In this document: piece after piece, positions 7,764 to 64,000 of the stretch | Position numbering within the stretch: the first letter of the stretch is position 1 | Layout: each line of letters opens with the position of its first letter | Assembly (NCBI GenBank): GCA_030704615.1 | Contig: CM060733.1 | Coordinates: forward strand, 40,548,001 to 40,612,000 | DNA: 64,000 bases | Direction of reading: 5' to 3' | From: Takakia lepidozioides | Taxonomy: Eukaryota; Plantae; Bryophyta | Made by a program: the position numbers and the translations under genes | Notes under the pieces: model-generated | The model's database searches: none | What the model was told of the DNA's origin: nothing | The model's input: only the letters and a program-made list of their open reading frames with translations

Positions 7764-7796
<33 letters not shown>

Positions 7797-12810: not shown

Positions 12811-12950
12811 ATAGAGCCCACCCCCGAAAGGGGGCAGTAGCCGCAAGGCGAAGTGACTCTTAGTTACGCCGACTTCGGCCGGAGTCTTCTCTCTCTCTCT
12901 CTCTCCCCACTCTCTCCATCTCTTTTGTCTCTCTCCCTCTCCCTCTCTCT
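12811..12950 (-). mobile_element. Very short (5'-truncated) copy of the 3' end of the Dualen-like LINE family, with (CT)n tract
   Basis: 12811-12890 closely matches 56061-56140, and both are followed by (CT)n. The segment is absent from the homologous position of the array unit ending at 7730, so it is an insertion. Confidence 0.7.
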
Positions 12951-17681: not shown

Positions 17682-18111
17682 TGTCATGGTTTTAGTCATG
17701 GTTATCTAGAATTACCTACTTCTAGTTAACTAGGACATTTTAGATATTTATATTTATATTTTGTGTGTTGGGACTTCATTTGGTCTCACATGCCAAGTGA
17801 GGTGTCGAGCCTCACTTGAGACATGGAGATAGGTTTTCCCCTTGTGAGTGTTGAGGAGGCTCATCTTCTTGTAGTTGAGCCTCCATGAGCTTCTCTCACC
17901 TCCATAGCTCTAGGTATTGAGAGGGAATGTGTTGAGGGCTTTGTAGGGTGGATTCCTTTAGCAAAGGTGCCCTTGGCTTGACTTAGTTTATGTGATAGAG
18001 TGGATTTCACTTGGAAGGACTAGGGCTTGTTCTTCATGTGATTGCTTCATGCTTGAGAGCTTTCATTGTCTTCTACTTCTCTCATTTCTCATCTCTTATC
18101 ACTACAAGAAG
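17682..18111 (+). repeat. 5' LTR (segment shared with the 3' LTR)
   Basis: Matches 34704-35132 with about 5 transitions and 2 small indels by manual comparison. Confidence 0.92.
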
Positions 18112-19800: not shown

Positions 19801-20613
19801 AGTGAAAGGACTTAGTGAAATTTAAGGGCCTTTGGAGGATTGTTTGGAAGATATTTGAGGGCCCTTGGAAGAGTATTTGGAGGATCTTTGGGGTCCTTAG
19901 AGGAGTGTTTGGAGGATCTTTGGGGTCCTTGGAGGACCCTTCGAGGAGCTTTGGTGGACAATGTTGAAGAGCTCTTGAAGGATTGATTGAGGGATATTGA
20001 AGGATACTTGCCACGGCCATACAAGCGAGTGGATAGAGACAGGAGGGAGAGTGGTGGGATGAGAGCATTCTGGGGTTAGGAATTGCTTTAGTTTCTCTTT
20101 TCCATAGTCTTTCACCCTCTCTGTAGGCCAAAACCTTTCCGTAGGTGGAGGCAAGAGTCAGTCCGGGTTTGGGCTGGGGTGTCCTTGCAGGAGCGACACT
20201 GTGGAGTGTTTTTGGTGTGGGGGAGTTGCTGTCTTGATTTTCTTGTGTTTGGATCTCCTCCACGCCTGCATGCTTGACTGTGCGCCATGTTAGCTTTATG
20301 TGGGCGTTTGTTTTCATAGGAGGTTGGTCCGGATTTGATCACTGGCCAATCCTAGAGTATGCTGTCGGTGGTGAGGCTGGAGTGATGACCAGCAAGACCA
20401 CCAGTGTTTCTTCTATGGTGAGGCTGGGTTGATGACCAGCAGACCATAGGAGTGTTTGCGGTGGATGCAGGTGCAGGTACAGGTCTACGTTAGAAACCTA
20501 TTATTCCTGCTTGAACCAGTAGCCGCAACAAGTTCTTTACCCGGTTACCTTGTAGAAAGTGGGGATTAGAGACAGGTTGACAACCGGTTGGGTTGTGAGT
20601 TTTCATCACGGAG

Positions 20614-22614
20614 GTGCCACTAGCTGCTGAGGGGAGTGCCGGTACAAGCACCAGCGATACTAGTGGGTACACAAGACAAGGTGTGCGGTTTAGGCCACGT
20701 TCACCTTCAGTGTCTTCTAAGGAAGGTTCAGACTCGGAGTCAGGAGGATTCTCGCCGAGGGTGCAAGTCATTTCCGTGCCATTGTTGTGGGACACGATGG
20801 AGGAGACGTATGGAGCTACCAAGGGGCCACGTAGGTACTCTGGAGCTGTGGGCACCATCGAGCTTGATGACTTTATACAAGAGTTTGACAGTTGGCGTGA
20901 TTTGCAGCAAATGCGCAATCCACAATTGTTTACGCCCTTTATGGCGTGGAAGGGGCTATTCCAGCACCTTGAGGGGCCGCCCATGGATGATTACCATGAA
21001 TTTAGGCGGGGACATGCGGTGGAGATTGAGGAGTGGCGAGAGTATTGGTCACCTAACTATGTCTCAATTACTAGAGGCACAAGGGCAGCGGTGACACCAA
21101 CAGCTACACAAATATCTCCAACTACAAGCACTAGTAGTGAAACAAGTAGTGCCGACACTTCTGCAGGTGGTACCAGTTCAAAAGGTGCTACTACTCCTCC
21201 TGCCACAATTACAACACATGTGCCTAGATTCAACCCGGTGGTGGAGTTCTTCCAGGAGTTGCGGAGGAACTACCAAGGTGTACGGACAGAGAAGCTGCGA
21301 AGTTTGCAAGACTTCCAACGCAAATCCAGTGAGAGCTTGCGAGAGGCCTACACTCGTATGAGGCGCTTGATAAGTGTGACCCAAGGGGTTACTGAAGCTC
21401 AGGCAGTCCAGTTCTGGTATGGAATTTTGGACAAGGAGCTCAAGAGAAGGGTGCGGGATGCAACCCTGTTACAAGCGGCCCAACCCACATTAGCGGATGT
21501 GTTTCTGCTGGCTGAATGGATTGAGCTCAACATGGTGGAGGAGCGAGTTGTTACCATTGGATTTGGCAAGGACATGCCTGCACGAGGTGCAGCTGCCAGC
21601 CCACAGACACAAGGGACTGCCCAACAGCGTGGTCAGGGGGGCAAGGTTTCCCAACCCAAGTTCCATGGAGCTTACAGGGGACCTCAGGTGCAGAGGCCCG
21701 TGGCATCTTTTGCAGGCCAACAACAACCAGGGGTGATATGTTGGACATGTGGAGGACCCCATGTCAAGAGAGATTGCCCAGAGAGTGGCAGAAGGCCGGC
21801 ACAAGCACAGCCTGCACAGTTGCAGTGTGGGCATTGTGGCAAGTATGGGCATGGAGATGCCTAGTGTTATGATTTGCATCCTGAGTTGCGCCCAGGCCAG
21901 TTCCAAGGGAACAATGGTGACCGGGGGCAAGGTGGACCAGTCCAGAGAGGACGAGGTGGTCGGGCACGAGGTGCAGGCCAAGGGCAAGCTCAACATGGCC
22001 AAGGACGCGGAGGTCAGGGTGTTGACCAAGACATGGCCAACCGGCTTTAGCAGCTAGAGTAGAGGCTCGATGCTATGGCTACAGCTCAGGTGGAACCGGC
22101 TCCCAGGCGGGATGGTCCACCTCCTGCTCCTGAGGGAGGAGATATGGGAGGCATGGGATTCATGTGTGGAGCGGCACTACCACTGGTGCAGGTGGAGTCT
22201 GCTGCAGCCGTGACTCGAGGAGCAGCACGAGTTCCTGAGCCACGAGGTGCAGAGGTGGAATTGGATCCACAGCGTGGGGAGGCAAGCCGTCAGGTGAGGC
22301 TTCCTCAGTCATTCACATTGGCGGAGACAGTGTCGACCCCATCCATGGCATCTAGTTCTCGCCCGACTGTTACCGAGGCGGAGGTTACTATGCCATTGGG
22401 GAGAGCTACACGTGCAGCACTAACACCTGCTACCAAGGCTAGTGCAACCGGTGTGTTATTGGGGGCAGCCACCTCTGTGTGTCAAGCCCCACTGTTCTCG
22501 GCAACCATGATTGTGACGCCGGGGGTAAGACCAGCTGCAGTGTTCAGACTAGCAACAACACTCTGCGAGAGTGGGAGGTCACTTCATCTTCTGCGGAGTT
22601 ACTGGAAGTTGTAG
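20614..22614 (+). pseudogene. gag: Retrotransposon gag with two zinc knuckles (two in-frame TAG stops)
   Basis: Capsid-like QRKSSESLREAYTRMRRL…QFWYGIL; knuckles CWTCGGPHVKRDC and CGHCGKYGHGDA*C. ORFs 20614-21864 and 22075-22614 share a frame. Confidence 0.88.
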
Positions 22615-23369
22615 TGGCAGAGGGATCCTCGGATTTGAGGGTCACAACTACCACGGCTGCGCCATGGCAAGCTGCAGCTACAAGGTTGACGGAGCTGCCA
22701 GCTAGGCCAGCCTTTGAGCGCGCCATGGTGACACCTGGAGTTGTCTTGTTAGACAACCAGGGAGACATTTTCACTTTGAGTGGACCGGTAGGCAAGAAGT
22801 ACCGGCCACTGCGGGTCTTGTTGGACTCAGGAGCTCAGCCACTGATGTTGGGCAGAGCTGCTATTGCAGGTTTGGGCCTCATGGAGGCGGATATAGAGCC
22901 TTGTCCTTTCCAGATACAGACATCTCTGGGAGGATCAGAGCAGGCTCGGGGCATGACACGACGTGAATTGGCCATTGGACTACAACCAGATCATCCTGTA
23001 GATGGCTCAGTGATGCAAGCCAAGGCCATTGTGACAGACGCGGTCTCTTACGATGTCCTTGTTGGTGGGGCAGTGTTATATCCCATGGGTTTCACCCTGG
23101 ACTTTTGGGAGGAGTCAGCATCCTACAGGCCTGGATGGCAGTCAGGGGATGGTCGTCGTGCACAGCTCCTTGTGACATTCATTGGGGGTATTGCGGCTAC
23201 CCAGCGGGGCAAGATGCCAATACTAGCCGCCTTTACAGCTGTAGTTAGTTGGCTTGGAGAGTTGCTGGAAGACAATGCCCATGCAGAGGATGTGCCACCT
23301 CCAGCAGAGCAGGATGACATGCATGGTACGGCGGAGTTGCCTACCATGGTTGCTCACACTCCATTATAG
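22479..23369 (+). CDS. Retropepsin-like aspartic protease region of pol
   Basis: VLLDSGAQ catalytic motif and YDVLVGGAVL closing motif. Confidence 0.88.
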   Translation: MSSPTVLGNHDCDAGGKTSCSVQTSNNTLREWEVTSSSAELLEVVVAEGSSDLRVTTTTAAPWQAAATRLTELPARPAFERAMVTPGVVLLDNQGDIFTLSGPVGKKYRPLRVLLDSGAQPLMLGRAAIAGLGLMEADIEPCPFQIQTSLGGSEQARGMTRRELAIGLQPDHPVDGSVMQAKAIVTDAVSYDVLVGGAVLYPMGFTLDFWEESASYRPGWQSGDGRRAQLLVTFIGGIAATQRGKMPILAAFTAVVSWLGELLEDNAHAEDVPPPAEQDDMHGTAELPTMVAHTPL

Positions 23370-23384
23370 GGTACGAGCAAGGAT

Positions 23385-24785
23385 TTGCAGCAGGCTGCTG
23401 ATGGACGGGTACAACAAGCCTGGGTAGAGGCCTTCGTACCGTCAGGAGAAGAGGAGAGTGTGGTGATTGCACTAGGACCACCTCAGTTGTCGCCATCGGA
23501 CACCACACCTCTTGTGTGGCAGTGCCCGGATGAAGGCATATGCCTTCTGGACTTGTTTGGCGGGATCAGCACTGGATTGGCTGCAGTACTGCAGGCAGGT
23601 ATACAAGTTCGACGTTACCTGTATGTGGAGAGGGATGAGACTGCACGACGCGTCTCACTATGCCATGTTGCTCAGTTGGTACAGCAGTACCCTGATTTGT
23701 TGCCAGTGTCTGCAGTTCGTGGATACCAACAAGCCTTGCCAGCAGACATTTCGTTGCTGGGGGTGCAGGATTTGGAGCGGGTTGGCTCCATTGATCTGGT
23801 AGTGGCAGGTTGGCCCTGCCAAGGGCATTCATCAGCCGGGCATGGCAATGGATTGCGAGACTCGAGGACAGGTCTGTTTTGGGAGATGGTGCGGATTTTG
23901 CGCCACTTGCAGCTTCATCAAGCTGTATCTCCAGCATACATCTTGGAGAATGTGCCACTGATGGGTGATTCTCGGGCCAAGGTGATGGCCAGTGTGCATC
24001 AAGTCCGGTCATGGCTTGGGTCAGCAGTGTTGCTGGATGCAGCTGCAGTGGGGTCATGGGCTCATCGTCCACGGCTATGGTGGACTAACTTGATGCCACC
24101 CGCACTGCTCAAGCGTGCATTTGATGGGGTGCAGCGGCCAGCACACCTCACAGTGGATAGCATTTTGGACACAGGGAGGCAGTCTCAACGTGTGAGACAC
24201 GATGACCGTTCGCCTTTGGCAGTGGTCAATAGGGTGGGTCAACCACGAGCAACATTACCTACACTGCTCAGCTTCCCAGGATCCCATGCTTTTCTGGATG
24301 GTGGACCTGGCCTCTTGTGGGATAGCCAATTGCAACAATTAGTGGAGCCCAATGCTGACGAGCGCGAGCGGGCGATGGGTTTTACCACAGGTACCACGGC
24401 GGTGCCATCTCTTTCTGAGGCATCACGTCGTCAGGTGTTGGGGCAAGCAATGGATCTCAACTTGACCTGGATTATCAGCTTGGCTATGGTTGAGCAGCGC
24501 AGAGTACGGAGTACACTTCCTTTCATGGTCTCCTTGCCTACCGAGACGGTACAGGCAGCGAGTGGGGGCGAGCAGGTGAGGACCACGAGGTGCAGGCCGC
24601 ATCCATGGCACACATGGGAGGTGCTCGAGGTTCAGAAGGAGTTGGCAGCCAAGGCGGCGGTAATGGATCAGGTTGGGGATTTTTCTCGGATTGAGGAGGT
24701 CCTCAAGGATGGGATGATGGGGCAGGATGAGACATTGTCACTGACAGAGGAGGTAGTGGTCACTGCTCAAGAGGTTGCAGCATAG
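23385..24785 (+). CDS. DNMT3-like C5-cytosine DNA methyltransferase domain inside the Gypsy pol (domain ~23541-24460)
   Basis: Motifs in canonical order: I LLDLFGGISTG, II RYLYVERD, IV DLVVAGWPCQGHS, VI YILENV, VIII AHRPRLWWTNL, IX ERERAMGF, X QVLGQAM. Same reading frame as PR upstream and the RT start downstream. Confidence 0.93.
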   Translation: MQQAADGRVQQAWVEAFVPSGEEESVVIALGPPQLSPSDTTPLVWQCPDEGICLLDLFGGISTGLAAVLQAGIQVRRYLYVERDETARRVSLCHVAQLVQQYPDLLPVSAVRGYQQALPADISLLGVQDLERVGSIDLVVAGWPCQGHSSAGHGNGLRDSRTGLFWEMVRILRHLQLHQAVSPAYILENVPLMGDSRAKVMASVHQVRSWLGSAVLLDAAAVGSWAHRPRLWWTNLMPPALLKRAFDGVQRPAHLTVDSILDTGRQSQRVRHDDRSPLAVVNRVGQPRATLPTLLSFPGSHAFLDGGPGLLWDSQLQQLVEPNADERERAMGFTTGTTAVPSLSEASRRQVLGQAMDLNLTWIISLAMVEQRRVRSTLPFMVSLPTETVQAASGGEQVRTTRCRPHPWHTWEVLEVQKELAAKAAVMDQVGDFSRIEEVLKDGMMGQDETLSLTEEVVVTAQEVAA

Positions 24786-24911
24786 CAACCACGGGACGCG
24801 TCTTCTACCTCTAAGCATGCTGGACTCAAGGTTGCAGTCACGGAGGACAACTGGGAGCCTGATGTTGGACCTATAGTCACCGGAGGAGAGAGACGACGTA
24901 TACGGCGGTTC

Positions 24912-25739
24912 TTGAGGGCTTACAGGAACTACTTTGCCTTCAGTTTGAAGGACTTAGGAGCACTGAAGGGTCAAGAGATTCGCATTGACTTGGCTACTGA
25001 CACGCCAATCTTTTGGAGACCCTATAGATACAGTGACACGGAGAGGTCCTTGATTCAGATGAGAACTCAGAACCTTTGGGAGGCTGGTTTGGTGGAGCTA
25101 TCTGGGGAGAGTATGCTTCAGCCACAGTGATGCCAGCCAAGAAGGATGTCTTTGGCAATTGGACGGAGAGACGTATGTGCGGTGATTACCGGCCTGTAAA
25201 TCGTCAGTCCAAGTCCGATATGTATGCCATGCCAACACTAGAGGAGATCTTTGATGCCATTGGGCATGCCAAGGTCTTTAGCACGTTGGCTTTACGATCC
25301 GGATATCACCGGTTGCCGATCAAGGAGGCGGATAAGCAAAAGACAGAATTCTGGGGGATCAATGAGCACGGGAAGGATTGCCTATACCAGTGGCGGTTCT
25401 TATCATTTGGGCTTAAGAACGCTCCGGCAGAGTTTCAGAGAGTCATGGACAAGATTCTAGCAGGGGTGGAGTTTGCTCGGTGCTACATAGATGACATCAT
25501 CATCTTTAGTGCTACGGTGGAAGAGCATGAGAGACACCTTCAGGGGGTATTTGAGCGCTTGAGGGCGCACGGATTGAAGTTACATCCGGGAAAGTGCAAG
25601 TTTTTCCACAACCAAATTAAGTATCTGGGTCACATGATATATCCTGGAGGATTGGGGGTACAACAGACTAAGGTAGAGTCCATTGCACAGGTTCCACGCC
25701 CCACGGATGTGAGCCGAGTTTGAGCTTTCATGGGGTTAG
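24912..25739 (+). pseudogene. Gypsy reverse transcriptase (one frameshift at ~25105, stop at 25721, then interrupted by CACTA)
   Basis: RMCGDYRPVN, FGLKNAPAEFQRVMD, CYIDDIIIFS, KCKFFHNQIKYLGH. Confidence 0.95.
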
Positions 25740-31325: not shown

Positions 31326-32176
31326 TTCCGTGGAACTCACTGAAGTCTTGCATTATGAGGATCAGAACTGCTTGACTTGCACGAGGCCTTGATCCTTAGG
31401 CAATCCCCAGAGCAGCAGTAGCTTTTGGGCTGCTTTTTTACTTTGTGTTTTTCATTTTGTCCCATAAGCTCTTTGAGCTTTCCGCAGATGTTATAAAGTA
31501 CCATTTTGTTTCATTTCATTCATTTTCATTTCATTTTGTTTCATGGCATGTCTTTCATCGTTTGTGCATTTCTAATGCATGATTAGTTCTCTTGTATGGC
31601 ATTACTAGTCGACTCACTACAAACACCGAAACTCCAAAGCATGAATCACTATGAATGATTGTTCAAGTAATTTCGAACACTTCATGTAAAGTAGTAAAGC
31701 AGTGGTTGCGCCAACTTCCGCAGTCGCAATTGCCACTGGGCATGTAACACTGCAAGTTATGTGGTCTACTACCACGTGGTGCCCCGGGCCCGTGGCCACG
31801 TGGCAGCAGTGGTGCTCGTCGTGGCGCCGCCACGTCGGCATCCACATCGTCGTCCACGTCCGCGTCCATGTGTCACCGCGCTTCAGTGAGTCGGTCCACT
31901 CATCCGGAGGGAAAAGTCAAAGTCAGCCCAAAAGGTCAGACACACGGGCGGCCCGCCTGGTTACGCCACGTGGTTCTTCAGCATTAATCGCATTAATCGC
32001 TGAGCAGTTGTTCGCGCGTCTGCGTCCTTTACCACTCCAATCATTGGATGTCCAACCCAACTACCACGTCTGTTGTAACTAGTCTGTTGTAACTTCCAGT
32101 CGATCCCAGTTTTTTGACTTTTACGACTCAAAATGAGTCGTTACCCCAGTGATAAATGACACGAATGGTTCTAGTG

Positions 32177-34359
32177 TAGCAAACTATTATAGACGGTTTG
32201 TTAAGGGATTTAGTGCCATTGCAAAGGCTCTAACCAAGCTGACCAAGGTGGACCAAGAGTGGCAGTGGGAAGGTGAGCAAGAACAAGCTTTTCAAGAGCT
32301 CAAGGCGAGGTTGACCTCGGCGCCCATCTTGAGACGACGTATCAGGGGGCGTCCTTTTCAGTTGCATACAGATTGGAGCATGCTGGGGCTTGGAGCGGTG
32401 CTCACACACGTGGATGATGAGGGAAGAGAGTTCGTAGTGGCTTATGCTAGCCGCTCGAACAACGTTGCAGAGTCTAAGTATAGCTCATATAAGGGAGAAT
32501 GCTTAGTTGCAGTGTGGGCCGTGGCACACTTCAGGTGCTATCTATACGGCAATCTCTTCACCCTTGTCACGGATCACCAACCACTCAAGTGGTTGATGGA
32601 GTCAGACAAGCTTACGGGAAAGCTTGCACGGTGGGCACTCATCCTTCAAGAGTATGACTTTCAGGTGGTGCATCGACCGGGTTTGGTCAATCGCAATGCA
32701 GATGGGTTGAGTCGCAATCCATGCACGAGCCAGCAGGATGACACTGGAGCTCGGTGGCATGGTGAGACGGACGAGGAGATGGTGCCCGGATGGCATGCAT
32801 CTGCATTTCTGTGTATCTTGGCAGCGGAAGGCCAGGTTGGACTTGCAACAGGAATGACTGTAGATCAAGTGTCTGAGGACCCTGAGGCCAGCAATGAGCA
32901 AGGTGGCGCCAAAGATATACATGAGGATTCAGTTGTGTTGGACTACCTCCGCACTGGAGCCACTGCAGCCACTGTGACTGCCAAGAAGAGGGATCGGATC
33001 CTACAACGAGCCAAGAGGTTAAAGTGGGAGGGGATACACCTGCTCCGAGTGTGGGAGGATGGTCGAGTGAGGATTGTGCCTCACCCAACACAGCGGGCAC
33101 GGTTAGTGCGGCATGCCCATGAGGAGTTGGGGCATTTTGGGGTGTGACGCACTCATAGTCTACTGTAGGGGCAGTATTGGTGGCGTGGTATGCACACAGA
33201 GGTGCAACAATTTGTGGCTAGGTGCATGGTGTGTGACAGGGTGCGTGCTTCATTCAACGCCCCTACTCCACAATTGCACCCTCTTCCGATCATGGGATTG
33301 GGCTACAGGTGGAGTCTTGACTTTGTAGGGCCGTTGCCACTGACCATGTGCCACAACAAGTACGTGTTGGTGATGGTGGAGCACTTCTCCAAGTGGATTG
33401 AATTGGTTCCATTGCCTGATAAGGCTAGTGAGGGAGCTGCGTATGCATTCTTGGATTGTGTGCTTAGCCGATTCGGTGCTCCAGCTGAGGTACTCACGGA
33501 CCAAGGGAGAGAGTTCTTGGGGGAGTTTCAGGTTTTGTGTGACAAGGCCTTGATAGACCACCGCACCACTTCTCGAGATCATCCTGAGGCCGATGGCTTG
33601 GCAGAGAGAGTTGTTCAGACAGTAAAGAGGGGTTTGCGCAAGTATGGCTTGCAAAAGGGACACCTAGGAGATTGGGACCTTTAGTTACCCTGGTTAGCCA
33701 TGGGCTACAGGTTCAGCAAGCAAGCATCACTTGCCTCCTTCTCACCATACTTTCTTCTCTTTGGCCGAGAGCCGGATTTGCCTACATCCATTCGCAGAGA
33801 AGCTGCTACAGTTCTTAGCCTTGACGATCCGGACGTGTGGGCACGGGCATGTGAGCAGCGTGCAGAGTTGTTCAAGAAAGTCATGCCCATGGCTTTCGAG
33901 AACCTTGCCATTGCACAACATCGTGATACATTGAGGTATGCTACCATACGTGGTGGGGGCTATCGTCCTGGTGTTCAGAGATTCAACCCTGGTGACTATG
34001 TCTATCTGCAGCAGACTGCTCCTACGACATTGGATGTGACTGCAGGACGTGTTATTTTGAGGGTTCGAGAGGTTTTGTCCTCAGGCGTCTTGGTCTTGGA
34101 GGGTCGGGATGGCATAACTTGGAAGGACCATGTGCGTAATTGTGCGCCATGTCACCTTCCGAATGTCGATGGCAGGATTGACCCAAACCTGGCAGTGATA
34201 TCTGCAAGTTTGAAATGCATGTTGTGTGGGTCTGCTAGAGGGGCAGCCACCATGCTGGTGTGTGATCGATGCTCTAGAGGTTGGCATATGTGATGCTTGA
34301 CTCCACCTCTTGAGATGGTTCCTGATGGGGATTGGTTATGTCCGTATTGCATTGGATAG
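32177..34359 (+). pseudogene. Gypsy pol C-terminal part: RNase H, integrase and C-terminal PHD finger (several in-frame stops)
   Basis: RH: LHTDWS, LVTDHQPL, NADGLSR. INT: HEELGH…CMVC, WSLDFVGPL, VLTDQGREF, GLAERVVQT. PHD: CMLC…LVCDRCSRGWHM*CLTPPLEMVPDGDWLCPYC (34216-34350). Confidence 0.93.
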
Positions 34360-34703: not shown

Positions 34704-35146
34704 TGTCATGGTTTTAGTCATGGTTATCTAGAATTACCTACTTTTAGTTAACTAGGACATTTTAGATATTTATATTTATATTTTGTGTGTTGGGACTTCA
34801 TTTGGTCTCACATGCCAAGTGAGGTGTCGAGCCTCACTTGAGACATGGAGATAGGTTTTCCCCTTGAGTGTTGAGGAGGCTCATCTTCTTGTAGTTGAGC
34901 CTCCATGAGCTTCTCTCACCTCCATAGCTCTAGGTATTGAGAGGGAGTGTGTTGAGGGCTTTGTAGGGTGGATTCTTTTAGCAAAGGTGCCCTTGGCTTG
35001 ACTTAGTTTATGTGATAAAGTGGATTTCACTTGGAAGGACTAGGGCTTGTTCTTCATGTGATTGCTTCATGCTTTGAGAGCTTTCATTGTCTTCTACTTC
35101 TCTCATTTCTCATCTCTTACCACTACAAGAAGTGAAGTGCACGACA
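34704..35146 (+). repeat. 3' LTR
   Basis: TGTCATG…CACGACA followed by the TSD GTTA. The first 429 bp match the 5' copy. Confidence 0.9.
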
Positions 35147-52770: not shown

Positions 52771-54461
52771 TCTGAACTTTGACATGATGCCAATGTGACA
52801 ACAGGAAAGTATCCAAAAACAGGTCACAGAGACGAGGAGAAGTTGTGGAATGGTGGGACAACCGAGGGAAAAAAGGTTAATGTCTGTTAGATTATAGAGG
52901 GCAGACGCAATTCAGCATAGGAACTAGTGTGATAAGTTGAGTTGGGTGTTTCCTAGAACAAATCTAGGCTGTCGTTATCAGCTGCAAGGTAAGGAAGTAT
53001 ACATGATTTGTGCAGAAGCAGTGATAGCTGAAAGAGCAGGGATAGAGTATGGGTCCAGATTCATCCAAGAGGGCCGGATTTCAAGCACATGATTACCAAT
53101 GATTACCTGTGGATTTAGCTATAAGAAACCTGCATGGGTAGATGGTGAACTGGATCCGCAGGAGTAGCGGCACAATTGATAAAATCAAGCACTGCTAATA
53201 AAGGCACCTTCTTCAACACATGTCACCCTGTTTTTCCCTCTTATCAGAACCGGTCCTAAATTTCAATGTCTGCAAGTTAGCTGGTTGAGTGAATCTAGTT
53301 TGGAGTGACTTTGACATGATATTGCCAATGTGACAACAGGAAAGTATCGAAAAACAGTTAACGGAGATGAGGGGAAGCTGTGGAATGAATACTTTTCTGA
53401 CCCCAGTCAATGGTGGGACAACCGAGGCAAAAAGGTAAATGCCTGTTGGATTACAGAGAGTAGCAGATGCAATTGAGAGAGGAACTAGTGTGGTAAGTTA
53501 AGTTGGGTGTTTGCTGAAACAAATGTAGGCTGTCATTGTCAGCTGCTAACAACAATGCAAGGATATATGCATGATTTGTGCAGAGGCATGGATAGCTGAA
53601 GGAGCAGCGATAGAGTGTGGGTTTAGATCATCCAAGAAAGCCGGATTTCAAGCTCCAGATTACCGATGATTCCCTGTGGAAGGATAGCTACAAGAAACCT
53701 GCATGGGTAGATGGTAGATAGTTTGGAGTGACTTTGACATGATACTGCCAAAGTGACAATAAAAAAAGTATCCATAAACAGGTAACAGAAATGAGGAGAA
53801 GTTGTGGAATGAACTTTTCTGACCCCAGTCAATGGTGGGACAACAGAGGCAAAAAAGTGAATGCCTGTTAGATTACAGAGAGTAGCAGACGCAATTCAGC
53901 ATAGGCACTAAGGCAAACTCTCCTTCCCCGCAAGGGTGTGTTTTGGTATCTGAGCGAATAAATATTTTATCTAAGAATATAATTTCAAAAATTCATTATT
54001 TAATAATGTGCCACTGTCCCATGTTGGTCAAAAGTAATAATAATAATAATAAATTAAATCCCCAAACCCCCCCCCCCCCCCCCCCCCCCAGCGACGCGTG
54101 TCAATTGACATGAGGAACCACGTGTCAAAATCACGATGCGACACATGATGACGTCTGATTCCCTCCTCTACAGTCGGGATGGCGTCACAGTCTGACACGT
54201 GGCGTGTTCTGTAGAAAGCACGCGTCTTTCTTACACAGCGGCTGACATGGACCCGTTCAGTCATTCAGTAAAGCCAACGTGTATGACTACCCCCACAGCT
54301 GCTCAGGCGACACGTCACAGCCAGGCTGGCGAGTCATATCTGCCATGCCACAACTGACTAGGGTTTTACGACTGCAGAGTCATGAAGTCGTAAGTGGCTT
54401 TCATAACTGCATTTGCAGTCATAACACAGAGTCGTAAAAGCCGCAATCTGTTGTAGTGTGG

Positions 54462-55340
54462 ATTTAGGTTTTAGGTTATAGAGTTTGCTAGGGTACATTG
54501 AAACATAGTACTTGGTATGAATGGAAAAGAAAATATGGAAAAGTGTACAGATGACTTGGCACCTATGAAAATTTGTTAATGAAATATCCCAACCACAGAT
54601 TGCATCCAAATTTCTATGAGGTGGAGTTTGGTTTAGGGTTTAGGATTTTAGAAAACTGTAAATGGACAAACAATTATGGAGTTTGAGTCTTTACCCATAC
54701 GTAGAACAATTCATGAAATATTATCCCCACCACTTCGACCGTACCCAAAATTGGAAGTAATAAATAAATAAGCATCAAACATTGAAATTAGGTTTTAGGG
54801 TATAGAGTTTGCGAGGGTACTAACCATAGTACTCGGTATGAATGAAAAAGAAAATATTGGGAATGGTACAGATGACTTGTCACCTATGATTTAGGGTTTA
54901 GGGAATAAAATTTCCCAACCATAGATTGTATCTAATCTATGAAGAATGCGCATCAAACAATGGAGTTACGTTTAAGGGCTTAGGGTTTAGGGTTTAGAGA
55001 ACTATAAATGGACAAACAATTATGGAATGTGTGTCTTTATGTGGAGGTCGTACAATAATTCAGGAAATATCCCCTCCACTTTGACCGCACCCAAAACTGG
55101 AAGCAACAAATTAAATAGGCATCAGACATTGGAATTAGGTTTTAGGGTACGGAGTTGAGTAGTGTAGTAAACATACTACTGGGTATGAATAGACCAAAAA
55201 ATCTGGGAAAGTGTACAAGTGACTTGTCACCTAAGAAATTAGACTTGAATGAAATATCCCAAGGGCCATTCTATTATGCCCAATCTTGTAACCCTTGAAG
55301 AATGCGCATCAAACATTCGAATTAGGTTTAGGTTATATGG
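54462..55340 (+). repeat. ~330-345 bp tandem repeat (about 2.5 copies) containing TTTAGGG-like motifs
   Basis: TTAGGTTTTAGG..A..GAGTT recurs at ~54464, ~54788 and ~55135; GACTTG.CACCTA occurs three times. Confidence 0.8.
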
Positions 55341-56058
55341 TTTAAGGTGAGGACAATATAAAGACTGAAGGCCCCAGAAGTATTGTCTTTAGAAGGTCCT
55401 AATAAGATAAATAGACCCAAGATAAATTGACCTGAGATGACACGGAATAACGGGTGGCAAAACGAGGTTCAGGACTGATTAGTGACGAAGAAAATTGAGA
55501 AGAATCTTAAGTAGTCCGAAAAGGCAGTAAATGAAATGTAACTCTGTACTTGAAGCCAGACTTACAGAATGCTACTGACGAGTAATGGGAGAAGATTCAC
55601 AAGCAGTAAACCGCGAAAAAGCTTGTCCATTGAAGCAACAACTTTCACAAATTGCCACGCGGTTTATACTCAGGACATTTTTTAGACCAATCATATTGAG
55701 CCCAACAATACAACCATGTGGACCGAGAATGAAGGAGATGGGCGAATCTGTTGAGGAGAAGACACTTTGGTGAGAACCAGAGAACCAAAAGAACGGTTAT
55801 TACGGCTAGCACTCGAGGCGGCATTCATAACACCAGTATCGATGCACTACACACTAACTTTAAATTCCCTATCCTCTCCATTCATAAATGCTTCAAAGCA
55901 ATATACCTCACAACCCTTCGCTCCCTTCCAACCATTATTACCAACAGACGTAAATTTGAATCTAACCCTTCTCTGACTCCCGGAGTACCTCGGGTACCCT
56001 AGGTACCCCAGGTACCCACGGTACCGTTGCTCATCTAGACTCCTTCCTATGGACACGT

Positions 56059-56137
56059 TTTAGAGAGGGCCCACCCCCGAGAGGGGGCAGTAGCCGTGAG
56101 GCGAAGTGGCTCTTAGTTACGCCGGCTTTGGCCAAAG

Positions 56138-56181
<44 letters not shown>

Positions 56182-59100
56182 ACGTGTTCAAATATTAATA
56201 TACCTTCTTTGCCAGCCACCAGCTTTTTTCTGGACCTCATCTCTGTAACGTTTCAGGAACCTCGAGTGATCATCCGGAGTTCCTAGTTTTCCTGATGTCA
56301 CTGCTTCCTTCTCTTTGCAGTTCCTCTCTCACATTACACCTGACCCAGCCCTTATGTCGGAGCGCAAGGATAAGTGACGCGTATTTAAGCCGTTTGTCTA
56401 GCGTTGAATCAGCGGGGTATCAATCATGGCAGTATGTGAATTCAATAAAGTAGATGGTAAGGTTGGGGGTTGGGGCGGTGGGTGGGGGGGAGTTTATGGG
56501 TAAACCATGTACAAGCAAGATGTCTGGGCATAGTCTGGCGGGGCAGGTGCATGGGGGGTGGGAGCAAGTACAAGGGAGAAGCCAGTGGGGGACGGTGTGG
56601 TCTGGGGGTCGTCCTTGGTAAGTACCAGCATTGATTAACGAGAACCATCTTGTCTCGGCGCGATGTAGAAGGAGTTTATGGATGTGCCAGACTGCTTGGT
56701 TATGGCGGGTTATACAAAGCCCGTGGATGACTGGGTGTGTACATCGGCTAAGAAGGTGTGGCCAGGTGTCACGTTCCTGGTGGGTATGAGAATAGAGGGG
56801 ACAATGCGGGGATGGGAAAAGGCGTGGCCAGAATATGTGTTTACGTTGATGTCCCATATATTGTGCGTATCGGAATTTAAGCGTCTGTTTGATTTGGGCG
56901 TCAGTAGCTGCTTTGGAGTGCCAAAAGTAGTTTGAGAGTTTGTTATGGAGTACATCGGATTGTGTCCATTTCTGTGTGTATAGTTTAGTGTGGCTAGCAG
57001 ATACCGAGGTTTGCTTATTGGCTTCTTGAGTAAGGGATTTCAAAAGGTTGCGTATGGGTCGGGGTTCAAGGGGGTCGGGTATGGGGTGTATTAGCCAGAA
57101 TGGGTGGGTATGTGCTATGTGGATGGGATCATTGGGAGGGTCAACAGGGGGTTCGTCGGCACCTTCCTGGGCAAGAAAGTCGGCAGCCTCGTTCCCCCGG
57201 ATACCTGTGTGTACGCGTACTTTGATTAAGTGAATGGGTTGGTTGATAGAGATAGCTAGGTTGGCGATGGCTGTGATAAGATTACGGTCAGAGTGATAAT
57301 GGCCCAGAAGGTGGGCAAGAGAGGTGGTTGCGGATGAGAAAGAGCGAGGCGAGGCTGTCTGTGAAGATATAATGTGGAGGGGGGAATGAGGATAGTTGGG
57401 TGAGCGCTTCAAATATTGCTATTAGTTCTGCACGAAGTATGGTGGCAGGACCAAGAAGTCTGTGTGTTGTGCCCTGATTGGTAGCGGCATGGTATACTCC
57501 ATAGCCTGCGTGGGAGCCATTGAGGGAGCCGTCGGTGTAGTGGGAGTGGGAAGGTGGAAATTTGGGAGGTATAGATTGGCAGTAGGATGGGAGGAGTGGG
57601 GGGAGCGTAGGTGGGGCAGGGGACGGGCGCGGTAGCGTCCTGTTCCATGCCTTGCTTAAGTTAATCTGATGGAGTGGGCCAGGTGGAATTGTGAGGACTG
57701 GGTGTGTGAGATGTTGGGGGTAGATGGTGGTTTTTAGCTTGTGATTGCGCTTAAGGAGTTGATCGAGTAGGGCAGGGAAGGTGGGAGGTATGGTGGAATG
57801 CGTGGTGTGTTGGACATGAAGAAGAAGGGTAAGGGTGGGTTCTTTGTAACGAAGGTATTTGGGGAGGGGCGGGGTGTGGATGTACCGGAGTGGGTTAGGT
57901 TCGATAGCGGCGAGGAGTATTACACCGGGTGGGAATTGTAGGAGGGGGTGGGGACTGTTGGGTAGCTTTTGGTGAGTGAGTAAAAGGATCGTGACGCTTG
58001 AGGGGGAGGACTGTGTGGCCATACGGGCCCATTGGAGGGCCTCAAGTGTGAGGGGGCCTGAAGGGGGGTGGGCAAATCCCCTCCCTGCCCATGCGTGTTG
58101 GGTGGCATGTCCGGTGGCTCCGAAGATGCAGTCTCGGGGGTGGGGGCTGGCAAAGGTTGTGATTCCCATCGGGCACGTAAGCGGATTGGAATAATATGAA
58201 TGAGTAAGTTCAAAAGTGGTAATGAGCAGAGAGAGGATATCCGGGGGAATAGTAGTATGAGCAAAGGCTTGTGATAGTTTTGTCAGGGAACGGGGTTTTT
58301 TGGGAGGAGTGTCTTGGAGGTAGCAGGTAACAAGCCAACTGAGTTCGGTAGCGAAGTCTTGGCGGGGTGGGTGGATTTGAGCGTCATAGGGGGAGGAAAT
58401 AGAGTATTTAGCCAATAGCCATGTTAGTCTGTCATTGGGAATGAGGCCAAGACAACAGCCGTTGAAGGTGTAGATAGTTGACATACGAGGGCCTTGACAG
58501 ATTGTGGGGGAGATGTGCATGATATCCTTATCTGGATTACATTCAGTAATGTGTATGTGTACGTTGGGGGCGGTAAGTGGTTGATGTACATGGCGAGCAT
58601 CTTTGGGTTGGGTTTGGGAGATATGTTGTTGGTGGGTATGCACGAGGTAGTTAGTGTCGGTACGTTTGTGGAATGCGGTGAGGAGTGTGAGATTGTGGGC
58701 GGGGTCGCAATCATCATGTGAGCCAAAGAGTCGTCCTCGATTTGCCATGAGTTATCATCAGTTGTGTAGCCAGCCCATTGGCATAGGTAATAGATATCAA
58801 CACAAGTGGCCCCATATGAGTCTGTAGAAGTTTGGGTTTTAATACCTAGAATGGCTTCAATAACATATGCGTCTGGGTTATCTGTGTGGTCATGATGAGT
58901 TGTAGGAGTGCCAGGTGAGGTGGGAGCTGGGGTGGAAGTAGTTTGCGTAAGGAATGGCGTATGGATGTGGGCGGGAGGGGTCTGGGACAAGTCCCTATCC
59001 GAGTGGGGAGATGGTATAGGGGAGGTGGATGTGGATGGGGTGTCTCTAGTGCCAAATGTACCTGAGGTTTGGGAAGCCCTAAGCGTGTGGAGAATAGAGG

Positions 59101-61782
59101 GGGATGGGCCTGATCTGTAGGTAGGTAGTAAGTCGCGTTGGGTATGAGGGAAGAGTGAGCATGGAAGATCGCATTCAAGGGTACATGATGCAGATGGGTG
59201 GCAGAGTAGGGTACGTAGGTGTTGGAGGAACCTGCATGTTTTGGCTGTGGCACGAGAATGTTTAAGTGTGAATTCTCCCGGGGTTATAAGTTGAGTCCCT
59301 GTGGCGGTGGTAAGTTGGGTGAGATGAGTGATATGCCGTTCTTTAAAATAGGTGAGGAGGGAGCGCTTTTGGCGGGGATGAAGGCGTTCAAAATGGGAGA
59401 GGGAGGGGCTGGTATTTAGAGCGTGTTCCAGCTGTGGTATCATGTTAGGATAGCCGGGTAGGTCGGTTTGGATGTTGATATGCATTTGTCATAGGATGAG
59501 TAGTGTACGTGCCGTGGGGGAGTGTAGGCAAGATTGGGAATGAAGAGATGGGAGGGCTTGTAGTCCATTAAATTTGTGGGCTAGGAATTTAAGAAGTCCG
59601 CGGTAGATAAGTCCTAGGCGTCCAGGGTCATTGAGTGCTTCTTGTAGCTAGGTACCAAGGGTTCGGGCATATGAAATAATCAGGGGGCTGGAGCTGACGC
59701 CAGAACAGTCTGTTGGGAGTTGGGTGAGGGCATTAGGAGTACTGGTAGGTAAGCCACATCTTCACTTGGTTAGTTGAGTGATGTGTTTGTCTAGTATTTT
59801 GAGATTTGGTAGGGAGAAAGGGGCGGCGTGAAAAGAGTATTGGACTTGTGGCTTAAGCACAGAGCTAATGATTGATAGTTTGGGTCTAATGGAGACAGGG
59901 GATTTAAGAAAAGCCAGGCTTTTGTTAGAGAGCTTAGCAAGTGTGGTGGTCTTCTGTACATGTCAGGTAAGTGATGGGACTAGCTGGATACCTAAGTATG
60001 TGTAAGGCTCATCAAGTCCCAAAAAGGGGAGGGGTTTTTAGGTAATGGATATAGAGTTTACAATGAGAAGCAATCGCAATTTTTGTTAATTTATTGCGGT
60101 GGGTTGCTGCGATAATGGCGCACTTGTGGAGACTAAGTTCCATGCCGGACCATAAGTTAAAGCGGGATAACTTGCTGACTTGTCAGTTGAGGTGTTGGGG
60201 TTTGTGAGCAAGAATAGCGAGGTCGTCAGCGTATGCGGCAGCGGAGATTTCACTAAGGGAGGTTTTATAGAGATAGCCGAGATTTCCGCGTGCTAACCAT
60301 CTTAGTAGAGGTTCTAAAAAGATAATAAAGAGGTATGGACTGAGGGTGTCACCCTGGATGGTACCGCGTAGGATAGGAATAGGGGGGGGTAGTACCATAG
60401 TATGCGCCGGAGTATTCCGTAGTGCTGTTGGTATAAATGTTGCCAATGAGTTGGATGGCATCGATGGGATAACCGAGGTCCGTCATGATTGCAAGTAGTC
60501 TGGCATGGTCTAAGGATCCGAAGGCATTTTTAAAGTCTATATACAAGAGATAGATATCTTGTTTAGTGAGCTTGGCATCTTCGAGGACTGAGAGGACGTA
60601 TTGTATTTGACGAGTTGTGTTGCGTGTGGCTCGGAAGCCCTCCTGGGGGTCACTCAGAATATGGTGTTGTTCTCCGTAATTGGACAGCAGCGTGGTCAAT
60701 GTGCTGGTAAGCAATTTATAGATAGTATTGGCTAGGGCTATGGGTCTATAGTTACCGAGGTTAGTTGGGTCGCCTTTCTTAAATAACAGGATGGTGCGGC
60801 TATGTTTCCAAGTAGGTGGGATACGCTTGAGTTGGTAACATAGCTTGAAAAATTTGAAGAAGATGGTGTGAAGATGGGGGTCGAGCGCTTGTAATATAGT
60901 GTTAGGGATCATATCTGGTCCAGGGGCTTTTGATTTGGATAGACCTTTAAGGCAAGAGTCATAGAGATCTAGTGTGAATAGGTCATGTATGCGATCTGTG
61001 GGTATCCCACGTTTGTCTAATGAGAAGCCGTCAAGGTCATGCCATGGGTAATGTTTGACTTTACATAAACAGTTGGGGTGGCGGTGGTCAGGGTGTAGGC
61101 AGTTTGCGACAGCGGGCGTATAGGAAGCGGATGCTTGTATCCATATTTCTTTGTTGATATCAGTGGGGCTTGTCAAGAAGTGGCCCAATCGATGTTTAAG
61201 GCGGTCAATTGGTGGATTGAGCGTAGGGTTAAAGATGGCTTTGTGAGCTCTTTTAGGATGGTCATGTAGGAGCTGGGCAAAGGAGGTGATAAACTTTTTG
61301 TGGTTATCGCTAGCTTTTTGTTTGGTTATAAGATATGCAGCTTTTTTTGCGTCCCTTCCTAGCTTGGCGAGGGCAGCAACCCAATTTGGGATGGTACTGT
61401 GGTCCATAGGAGGGGGCAAGAGGGCTTGGCATACTGGGAGAGAGTTTAGGCAAATAATACGGGGGTCACGTCTCCATTCTATGTGATGATTGTTGGATGG
61501 GGAATTGGGGATGATAGTAAGGGCACGGCGTATGGTATGATGGGTGTTAAGGTGAGAGGTCCAGACACGTTTTTGTGAGCGGGTAAGGTATCCTCCATTT
61601 TGTTTGGATCGGGTAGTCTGGGAGAGGTCCTGGGGGGCCAAGCATGTTGCTAACACGCTTGTGGTCATTCTTGGAGGATGGTTGTGAGGGTACGCTCCGC
61701 CTCGAACCAGGAATCCTCATGGGATTGCGTCATATTTGTGTCGGAAAGGGTGTAGGAGAGTTTTTGGGTAAGGAGTGAGCAG
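56059..61782 (-). mobile_element. 5'-truncated, degenerate Dualen/RandI-like non-LTR retrotransposon (RT, chromodomain, MTase-like domain, RNase H, Zn knuckle, RLE)
   Basis: RT: KAPGPD, NYRPIAL, YIDFKNAFGS, QGDTLSPYLF, AYADD. RNH: YTDGS, RAELIAI, IFTDS, HTGIRGNEAAD. Knuckle: CPLY…HLLSRC. RLE: RHNQAV…PDIL…FIEFTYC. Possible 3-bp TSD (CGT at 56056-56058 / 61783-61785). Confidence 0.85.
60183..61668 (-). pseudogene. LINE reverse transcriptase (frameshifted at ~60385)
   Basis: ORFs 60349-61668 and 60183-60461 together contain the non-LTR RT motifs up to YADD. Confidence 0.93.
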
Positions 61783-64000
61783 CGTAGCTACGGCGTGAGC
61801 CCAGCCCCGTGAGCCTGGGAGCTGAGCTCACGTTGTAGCTGCAAAGCGTGAGCGGCACAAATCTGCTGGAGAAGCAGGTCCTATAGGCGAGGATTGCAAG
61901 AAGAGGGCCTATTACCGTGGACAGCACTGTGTAAATCCGTCCATACCCCGGGGCAGGGACTTCGGTGATACGAGCCGCCCGAGCCTGCAAAATTCTAGCC
62001 GATTCCATCTTGCATTCGTGATCTGCACCCGAAGCGACACGGCGCACTGTTTTTCCATCTCTTTTTGTTGGGTGGGAGTCGGCACCGGGTGGAGGCATTG
62101 CCGGAGCATGTGGCACATCTGTGCCGACAGTGCACAAGGGCACCACTCGGGATAGTGCAAGACAAAACCCTCCCTCCTCCAGCATGCTTATCTCGGTTGT
62201 TGACAGCGACGTCCCAAGTTTCACAGGCCAAATTGCGGGGGGAGGGGGTTTTATTATCACCGAAGGACGAACTGTTCCCTTGACGCATCGTGCCATATCG
62301 TCTAGGCAGAACCAGAACTTGTGGTCCTTTGACTCCCCACTATGATAAGGTCGGAACAACCCTGTGAATGTTGGAGCTGGAGTCCCCCTGGAGCCTTTGC
62401 ATATTTTTGATTTGCATTTCTTGAAAGAGGGGGTCCGAATTGCCATGCAAGCAACTTTAGATCCTGGTGGGGTGCGTTCTATATGCCACTCACTATCAAT
62501 GCAATCAGATTCCTGCACCATGGCCACCACCTCCTCCAATAGGATTCCTGCTGCTGTGCTTGCATGTTCTGCACCTGCTCCACAGGAGAAGGACCCACCT
62601 GGGAAGGGGCCGGCACACGACTTAGTCTGCACTGGAGACACCTTTGGCACAGAGAAATTGACCCTGTCTGGGCGATGGGAATCTCCATCTGACCCTGGAA
62701 GAGTGTTCAATTTCCTTTTGCATGATCCAAATCTTTCCTCGCCTTTCAAATGAGGGAGCCTGGATTGCAAAGGGGAGCCTTCAGTGCACCTGTTCAGAGC
62801 TCTGGCCATCTTGGATGGGTCTCCGGACCTACTCGCAGCCCTTAGCATCAACAAAGTCGTACCGGGGCCTTTGCCTCCACCCCGTCCCATCAGAAAATTG
62901 CGGTACCTGATTTGTTGTGTAAGTGCCTGCACCATGTCATCAGCAGTGGCCACATACAAGTCACGACCTGCTTTGGTAGATTGCTGCATCCAGGCGTTAT
63001 GAACAGTCTCCGCCAAATTACAGGATGGCATGTCGGCCAAGTCCTCCAAGGACATGTCCTGCAGGAGGCATTGCATGGAAATGTGAGGAAGGAAAGGAAA
63101 TGAAAGAGGTTCTGCAAGCGACAATCCAAGAACCCCAAATGAAGAGGCACGATGCAAAATTTCTGATTTTGGGATTCAAGAGGCTTACCGTCGTCATGAA
63201 AGCTCCCCACTGTTTGTATCTGAAGTGCCAGAAAACCAACCAGTCCTCCAACTCCTTCAGGTGGATACCAGTAGCAGCACCAGAGGAGAACCACCAAGCC
63301 CGGATTGCTTGGTAAGTGCTCTCAGCTTCTCCCATTGAGTTGGCATTTTTGTACTTGAGACAGAGCATTTTGTGCTCCAACTGAAGGTCAGGGCGAATGC
63401 AGCGCTTTGTATGACGTGCCAGAGATTGACTCCAATGGAAGAGGCATGTGCGCTCCCTACTTTCCATTGGGACCTTAGGATCCCCCGAACCAAACACGCG
63501 CCGCACTGCATTGAAATTTGCCTGTGCACTATCAGCCATGAAGCCCGCAAAATTTGTGTTTTGTATTCCATTGCGCTGCATGACGGCCAGGAGCGAATTC
63601 CACATGAGCATCTGGGATTCAGTGTCCTCCGACTGCATATCACAAATTGCTATTGAGAGCACACGCTGGTACGCTGGATCATACACATGGCACGCCATGG
63701 TTGTCCAACCCTTCACCCGTTTGCAGTGATCAAACATCAACCAGCATTTAGCCAAATCTCCTCCAGGTTGCATTCGGCGGACAATGCTCACACCACTGCC
63801 TTCGCCCATTGCGGACATCTTGAACAAATACACCTTGGACGAGCCCTGGCCAGGGAAGATACTGTTTTGAATGAATTCATAGCGACTTCTCCGTTTGAGG
63901 TCCATAATGTTGTCCATGAATCCAGCAGTGCCTGTGCCGACTCTGAGTGCATTCACCTGGTTTCGAATATTGGGAGAGCTCAACACGGAGAAATGGTCCA
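61783..64000 (-). CDS. Mutator-like (MULE) DDE transposase; N-terminus outside the window, C-terminus interrupted by the LINE
   Basis: WLMFDHCKRV (D), GFMADSAQAN (D), CLFHW (CxxH) and CNLAETVHN (E). A phase-0 GT-AG intron at 63188-63059 joins the two ORFs. Confidence 0.82.

Follow-up and report, generated by a model that had tools for sequence, protein, structure and literature searches.

The 64,000-nucleotide stretch of contig CM060733.1 analysed here (assembly GCA_030704615.1, positions 40,548,001 to 40,612,000; hereafter the window, in whose numbering all coordinates are given) carries on its minus strand the remains of a long interspersed nuclear element (LINE), i.e. a retrotransposon without long terminal repeats (non-LTR). 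Its coding stretch (56300-61780) is purine-skewed and runs, in the order of translation, from a reverse transcriptase (RT) through a chromodomain, a domain resembling the methyltransferase PCIF1/CAPAM, an RNase H and a CCHC zinc knuckle to a restriction-like endonuclease (RLE). The element is a multi-copy non-LTR retrotransposon, and the copy in the window is decayed, 5'-truncated and 3'-inverted. The interpretation towards which we lean, with moderate confidence, is that of a likely Dualen LINE in which the chromodomain would bias insertion and the PCIF1-like domain may act as a non-catalytic or weakly catalytic binding module. An earlier note, made from the sequence alone, had listed RT, chromodomain, RNase H, a degenerate CCHC and an RH..PD..E endonuclease, and motif mapping recovered all of them on the minus strand, where the note had placed them or close by; its list missed the PCIF1-like domain (~58550-57750), which is better conserved and arguably more novel.

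Motif positions were obtained by three-frame translation and motif mapping on the minus strand. The 5'-most remnant of the open reading frame (ORF), at 60950-61671, consists of the N-terminal extension of the RT and the linker towards an apurinic/apyrimidinic endonuclease (APE). In tblastn with the relatives P0220, P0005 and P0008, which carry both APE and RT, homology ends at 61647-61671, within this linker, and no APE match was found anywhere in the window. The APE was lost by 5' truncation near 61671-61780, in line with what had been supposed from the sequence; the truncation adjoins a high-copy repeat, with contig depth climbing about 100-fold from 61767 onward. The RT itself (59985-60950; Pfam RVT_1 E 4e-13; 60-62% identity to P0006) shows the motifs GPDMIP (60921), QGDTLSP (60368) and YADD (60233) and has a stop at 60185. 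It is followed by a thumb-like region and a Pro/Thr/Ser-rich linker with four in-frame stops (58880-59985; tblastn of P0005, P0006 and P0007), by the chromodomain (58733-58867) and by the PCIF1-like domain (57750-58550, about 270 residues). The RNase H (57150-57545), with one Pfam RNase_H match in each of two frames (E 2e-6 and 5e-4), has kept its D-E-D-H-D residues, with the motifs YTDGS (57539), RAEL (57440), IFTDS (57368) and HTG..NE (57211). In the zinc knuckle (56741-56803) the second Cys is substituted, the complete CxxC..H..C pattern being present in relatives, and the RLE (56345-56710; motifs and tblastn, with 42-48% identity to P0080 and P0241) comprises RHN (56707), PD (56530), EF (56443) and K, with a stop at 56422 and an interruption at about 56345. 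With four frame changes (near 60382 and 60030 in the RT, near 58729, and near 57305 in the RNase H) and six in-frame stops, this copy is dead and decayed.

The end of the element, which the earlier note had set at 56300, had to be moved. The last 57 codons of the RLE lie on the plus strand at 55796-55966 (tblastn with residues 678-734 of P0241, 49% identity, E 7e-10), and in sequencing run X5 one contig departs from the window at 56340, its letters matching the reverse strand immediately to the left of 55796. Because of these two observations, an inversion of about 545 bases (~55796-56340) after insertion, with breaks in the RLE coding region and in flanking DNA, appears to be the simplest reading. 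Read in the sense of the element, some 100 bases follow the end of the RLE; after them come a 70-nucleotide segment that can form small hairpins (56066-56140) and a tail of (CT)n. Since a contig from another copy covers 55809-56112, this putative 3' untranslated region (55967-56180, plus strand) is probably the 3' end of the element. Comparison of the flanks revealed no target-site duplication, the best match being 11 bases long (E 0.73).

Further copies were followed in contigs taken from sequencing runs; four of the five listed runs represent one sample, at 32-37% of sampled words, and a small share of the stretch was found in a plant metagenome as well. In run X1, 5526 contigs fell on 55800-62400, flanking repeats included, with a likeness ranging from 99% to below 90% and with all 30 bins covered; contig depth was not taken as copy number.

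The assignment to Dualen/RandI, already proposed from the sequence alone, is well supported, and the element likely belongs to this group, because its RT clusters at a support of 100/99 with full-length ORFs that bear both APE and RLE. This combination in one ORF defines Dualen/RandI (PMC5029228, PMC4640811; here and below, statements about published work refer to the accessible parts of the sources). Such elements possess a single long ORF with APE, RT, RNase H, CCHC and RLE, in some cases also a cysteine protease (PMC5029228, PMC4640811, PMC9977147), and have been regarded as linking LINEs of the RLE type with those of the APE type in evolution (PMC4640811). A search with the RT returned 64 proteins, the top 14 at E of at most 1e-35 and the remainder at E of at least 1e-20; APE-family matches are found in the RT relatives P0001, P0002, P0003, P0005 and P0010, and an APE is also present in P0220. 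Cluster look-ups contributed three ORFs of the clade with 3386-3855 amino acids: P0238 with a C48 protease (Peptidase_C48 E 2e-6), APE, RT, PCIF1_WW and RNase H; P0250 with APE, RT, PHD and PCIF1_WW; and P0262 with APE, RT and RNase H. All three finish with CCHC, PD and E motifs, and each matches the methyltransferase region of the window (tblastn, E 8e-11 to 2e-13). The protease, seen in one of the three, forms together with the other domains of P0238 the set listed for Dualen (PMC5029228), and the corresponding N-terminal region is missing from the window copy.

Two trees underlie this placement. With FastTree and all 67 RT rows (6 of 72 candidate proteins having been left out for short RT cover), the window falls into an 18-row clade with the full-length relatives (support 99). 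IQ-TREE, applied to 30 hand-chosen rows of the 67 with a midpoint root, with unlabelled RTE references and without named Dualen, R2-group or CRE rows, unites the window with 11 relatives, including P0238, P0250 and P0262, at the support given above. In both trees this clade is separate from APE-only LINEs, one of which is named LINE-1 ORF2. An L1- or RTE-type APE LINE, which the earlier note had considered as the alternative, does not fit, and L1 membership was rejected: the RLE is present, its motifs are kept in relatives and the RT stands outside the APE-only rows. What weighs against Dualen is that, in the sub-clade to which the window element belongs, no one protein extends all the way from APE to RLE, that the names of the 20 clusters consulted include neither Dualen nor an alga and that the RT tree lacks a named Dualen reference. 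The missing Dualen name among the clusters would also suit a sister RLE lineage, as would the lack of an APE in the window copy and the fact that R2 proteins are the best PDB matches of the RT (E 8e-14 versus 2e-6 for L1). Such a lineage is opposed by the APE of the nearest RT relatives and by the full-length APE and RLE ORFs within the clade, and we regard it as very improbable that either this or a private capture or chance match of the chromodomain accounts for the element.

The chromodomain is marked on the minus strand by YVIEAI at 58867, YYLCQWAGY at 58792 and SWQIED at 58750-58733. Searching Pfam, as the earlier note had advised, gave a Chromo match in the window (E 2.3e-4, 21.5 bits), and a sequence search of the PDB at E up to 10 produced 38 matches, with the chromodomain of MPP8 best (E 0.003) and nearly all others chromodomain proteins by name. 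The Y/W/Y aromatic cage is indeed there, as Y58867, W58777 and Y58768 align to the F/W/Y of MPP8; W58747 is a core residue. In the window copy, the frame change near 58729 parts the chromodomain from its C-terminal helix. The best relative, P0067 (43% identity in the neighbouring domain), starts midway through a chromodomain; the second half, which is present, is canonical (Chromo E 4e-9, WxGY..TWEPE) and runs into the PCIF1-like domain within one ORF. A one-base difference near 58729, found in 4 and 5 contigs of two sequencing runs, is consistent with the two domains sharing a frame in other copies as well.

By shuffle tests over hand-picked ranges, a homologous chromo segment is present in six close relatives (0-4 of 2000 shuffles as high) and, at 26 of 2000, in one more; no pairwise chromo homology was detected in the distant P0250 and P0014 (813 and 1248 of 2000 shuffles as high). 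Contigs at 58663-58970 and 58516-58952 bridge the chromodomain and its neighbouring sequence. Other genomic copies thus span the chromodomain, which is therefore not private to this copy, and with the homologous segments of the relatives, P0067 and P0075 among them, a private insertion was rejected. In an alignment of 14 relatives both tryptophans are kept in 13 each, and the first cage position is aromatic in 7 of 10. For P0075, a relative without the cage, a model with a pLDDT of 85.7 was compared with known structures; CAPAM came first (Z 11.4), followed by chromodomains over their whole length, such as those of Rhino (Z 7.1, root-mean-square deviation (rmsd) 2.0, 64/64 aligned) and SUV39H1 (Z 6.9, rmsd 1.9, 61/62 aligned). 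Although none of these Z values reaches 8, the domain is a small one, and every rank from 2 to 12 is occupied by a chromo-fold protein. The chromo fold, i.e. three strands and a helix, can be recognized by sequence in the window and by predicted structure in the homologous segment of P0075.

Several points weaken the case for a chromatin-reading domain. The Chromo score of the window lies below the curated cut-off of 25.1, only 1 of 14 close relatives keeps the third cage aromatic, just 1 of 270 stored proteins has the full cage pattern where the chromodomain would lie, and a chromo-like strand is missing from this place in P0013/P0238, P0066/P0262 and P0065. As judged from the aligned proteins, the chromo fold is a trait of a sub-clade and the full Y/W/Y cage that of a sub-lineage. 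With the cage nearly absent among relatives, histone reading is therefore not a family-wide role. PHD fingers stand directly ahead of the PCIF1-like domain in P0250, P0253, P0203 and P0205 and after the RLE in P0065; the reader slot therefore varies across the clade.

An alternative to histone reading starts from the same alignment. GEN1 is a junction resolvase with a chromodomain in a nucleic-acid-binding role, and the chromodomain of the LINE could likewise be a structural DNA- or RNA-binding accessory to integration, with the full cage a leftover. This would fit the 13 of 14 relatives that lack the third cage aromatic and yet keep the tryptophans, and GEN1 and chromoshadow domains (Z 5.6-6.1) are among the structural matches of cage-less P0075. 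On the other hand, the cage is kept both in the window and in P0067, i.e. in families that are only 43% identical in the neighbouring domain, and it is untouched by the common variants of the genomic copies: two runs of a single sample each gave 70 contigs over the chromodomain, and among these 10 substitutions reach a share of at least 12%, none of them in the codons of Y58867, W58777, Y58768 or W58747. Five of these 10 are synonymous (p 0.08 versus 25%), which is a weak excess. We accord the accessory role a tentative, minority standing, and return to the preferred interpretation, a chromodomain that would bias insertion.

The domain that follows is the more widespread of the two. Between chromodomain and RNase H, Pfam gave a weak PCIF1_WW match in the window (E 0.059), and a HMMER-wide search with 57699-58655 against 1.84 billion representatives found 248 proteins at E up to 0.001. 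Of 52 relatives scanned (50 of 150 listed plus 2 from a separate search), 39 gave a PCIF1_WW match with an E of 0.05 or less, 19 of these above the curated cut-off; Chromo was matched in 1 and Pfam Dam in none. All 30 ESM Atlas matches belong to PF12237 clusters (top 0.92), the recognition value of 2011 being under the guide value of 2300 and thus weak alone, and family profiles run against the PDB found only zebrafish and human PCIF1 (best E 1.5e-6 and 2.4e-7). A word-indexed search for longer proteins with the methyltransferase piece yielded none among 2391 candidates, and a single-sequence PDB search with this piece gave nothing useful. An AlphaFold2 model built from 101 sequences (pLDDT 81.3, pTM 0.76) was compared by VIA-align with 48,161 chains, of which CAPAM (6IRX) ranked top with Z 17.0 (rmsd 4.1, 227 aligned) and an RlmJ-type structure next with Z 7.9. 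As modelled, a Rossmann methyltransferase fold of the PCIF1 type, i.e. an N6-adenine methyltransferase fold, is present. PF12237 has already been assigned automatically to some of the relatives, so that prior notice of the domain is possible.

The sequences indicate that this fold is clade-wide while the standard catalytic residues are mostly lost. NPPF is the catalytic-loop motif of CAPAM (PMC8287941); in the window, which also has a YYSNPLT motif at 58196, the family profile aligns this loop to HPPS (58070-58059), which departs from (D/N)PP(F/Y/W). Of 92 relatives, 64 have His as the first residue of the motif and 2 have Asn, and the aromatic at the fourth position is mostly lost; HPPN, HPPH and FPDF are the motifs found in the three full-length ORFs, and HPAA also occurs among the long ORFs. 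No WW domain was matched by Pfam in the window or in the full-length relatives. METTL5 is killed by mutating the first and last motif residues and METTL16 by mutating the Asn (PMC8287941), and PCIF1-clade domains of DIRS elements were judged inactive on similar grounds (PMC4738411). Because the motif mostly starts with His, the methylase of the LINE is likely a binding pseudo-enzyme. We consider a pseudo-enzyme that binds nucleic acids somewhat more probable than all other options together, an active enzyme rather less likely than that, and any other function improbable.

This view has its difficulties. The model aligns to residues 423-673 of CAPAM only, and since the cap pocket of CAPAM draws also on the helical domain, cap binding is doubtful. 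A strictly conserved His could mean altered chemistry rather than loss, and many of the aligned relatives are short fragments, possibly decayed. In addition, NPEY is kept in P0065/P0258 and P0205, which by their sequences would be the best candidates for active enzymes. One may imagine an active methyltransferase with a His motif that marks the RNA of the element, at a cap-adjacent or an internal adenine, or its new cDNA, with the chromodomain placing the complex on chromatin; the LINE would then write an adenine mark of its own. The whole fold and the S-adenosylmethionine-side motif are conserved (F178 in 87, W189 in 82 and D175 in 77 of 94), some members have NPEY, HPPY or HPAY motifs, and LTR elements that bear a DNA adenine methyltransferase (DAM) show raised N6-methyladenine (6mA) in DNA (bioRxiv 10.64898/2026.05.21.726589). 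Yet Asn is found in 2 of 92 relatives and the fourth aromatic is mostly gone, and heterologous DAMs of retrotransposons produced no 6mA in E. coli despite their NPP (bioRxiv 10.64898/2026.05.21.726589). Such a marking enzyme therefore seems unlikely to us, and the binding module remains the preferred interpretation.

Several known systems share parts of this architecture. With Dualen/RandI the window element has in common the domain set and a microsatellite 3' tail (for RandI tails, see PMC3747384), but the window copy lacks the APE, and the Dualen hosts are chlorophytes or cryptophytes, whereas the host here is probably a streptophyte. The domain list for Dualen in the accessible part of PMC5029228 includes a SET methyltransferase in cryptophyte members, but neither a chromodomain nor a PCIF1-like fold. 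The DIRS1/CrRem1 elements (PMC4738411) likewise have a PCIF1-related fold in the neighbourhood of RT and RNase H, in many cases one whose active site is degenerate; they are tyrosine-recombinase elements, however, and not LINEs, and the window relatives match PCIF1_WW (39 of 52) rather than Dam (0 of 52). The accessible supplement of that study contains no occurrence of Dualen or Exo_endo_phos. PCIF1/CAPAM itself (6IRX, 6IRV) has the same fold with FASPLN-type and FGS-type motifs, from which the window domain differs in lacking the WW domain, in matching 423-673 only, in having HPPx for NPPF in most members and in sharing only 15% identity in the structural alignment.

A chromodomain within a retrotransposon polyprotein is known from chromoviruses, Chronos, CoDi-I and EpiLTR/DAM-LTR elements (PMC5348765, bioRxiv 10.64898/2026.05.21.726589), and EpiLTRs even pair it with an adenine methyltransferase (bioRxiv 10.64898/2026.05.21.726589). 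All these are LTR elements, and in the cases that PMC5348765 describes the chromodomain adjoins an integrase, whereas here it lies in the middle of the ORF of a target-primed LINE, immediately before the PCIF1-like domain. In the main text of the study on DAM in DIRS and LTR elements, as far as accessible, neither PCIF1 nor Dualen occurs (bioRxiv 10.64898/2026.05.21.726589). SymbioLINE-Dnmt is also a LINE with a methyltransferase, but this is a C5-cytosine enzyme encoded in a separate upstream ORF (PMC5890265). A literature search whose scope lay outside Repbase Reports and the original Dualen description found neither a chromodomain nor a PCIF1-like fold described for LINEs; in the texts accessible to it, the only co-mention of Dualen and chromodomain concerned the chromodomain of a Gypsy element, and PCIF1 together with non-LTR retrotransposons led only to N6-methyladenosine (m6A) of human L1.

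The protein of a non-LTR element attaches to the RNA that encodes it; the endonuclease nicks the target, the RT copies from the nick and the RNase H clears the RNA. Within such a cycle, the PCIF1-like fold would probably hold the RNA of the element or an RNA:DNA hybrid beside the RNase H rather than serve as an ordinary m6A writer. A chromodomain with a cage would bind methylated histone tails and in this way bias insertion to repeat-rich chromatin, and cage-less relatives may use the same chromo fold for binding nucleic acids or proteins. The insertion bias is suggested by the analogous chromoviruses (PMC5348765); that the cage-bearing domain reads H3K9me or H3K27me in particular is, by this analogy, an evenly balanced call. 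The dense repeat content of the window is compatible with such a bias but is no test of it. That the LINE both reads and writes marks, i.e. that the chromodomain leads it to H3K9-methylated chromatin and a His-based enzyme of the PCIF1 type methylates adenine on its RNA or cDNA, strikes us as quite improbable.

Other repeats accompany the LINE. A second copy of its 70-nucleotide 3' segment with (CT)n lies at 12813-12926 on the plus strand (87% identity), and about 95 contigs per run start exactly at 56066 with dissimilar T-rich flanks, which suggests a high-copy short element that shares the 3' end of the LINE. The segment has two short hairpins with purine-rich tetraloops; as no Rfam family was found at gathering level and its folding on the sense strand is no better than that of shuffles (z -0.5 and -1.6), no ribozyme is claimed. 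A decayed Gypsy-type LTR element occupies the plus strand at 20599-25723, with gag, protease, a C5-cytosine DNA methyltransferase (DNA_methylase E 5e-13, 23370-24782) and RT, and, after a gap of about 6 kb, at 32137-34350, with RNase H, integrase and a PHD finger. This element resembles KnitGypsy-Dnmt3 of the streptophyte alga Klebsormidium (PMC5890265), and a 431-bp repeat (98%) at 17682-18111 and 34704-35132 may represent its LTRs. The high-copy repeat at 61780-64000 (minus strand) contains two long ORFs (481 and 326 amino acids) without Pfam match, possibly for a DNA-transposon transposase. A multi-kilobase repeat recurs at 2962-12810 in several diverged copies with a likeness of 73-85%, some direct and some inverted, and TTTAGGG-like words occur at 54400-55400. 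These words, the Klebsormidium-like Gypsy element and the share found in a plant metagenome point to a likely streptophyte host; the land plant of the earlier note is a less secure reading.

Overall, the stretch from RT to RNase H, which is without assigned domains in the accessible descriptions of Dualen, now appears to contain a clade-wide PCIF1-like fold and, in a sub-clade, a chromodomain. The capture of an adenine-methyltransferase fold and that of a chromatin reader, known from DIRS and LTR elements, are hereby extended to target-primed LINEs. At the same time, chromodomains with and without the cage and catalytic loops of the HPPx and the NPEY type provide natural contrasts. Should the chromodomain indeed steer insertion, this would be a chromatin-guided LINE protein, with relevance to the question of how LINEs select their targets.

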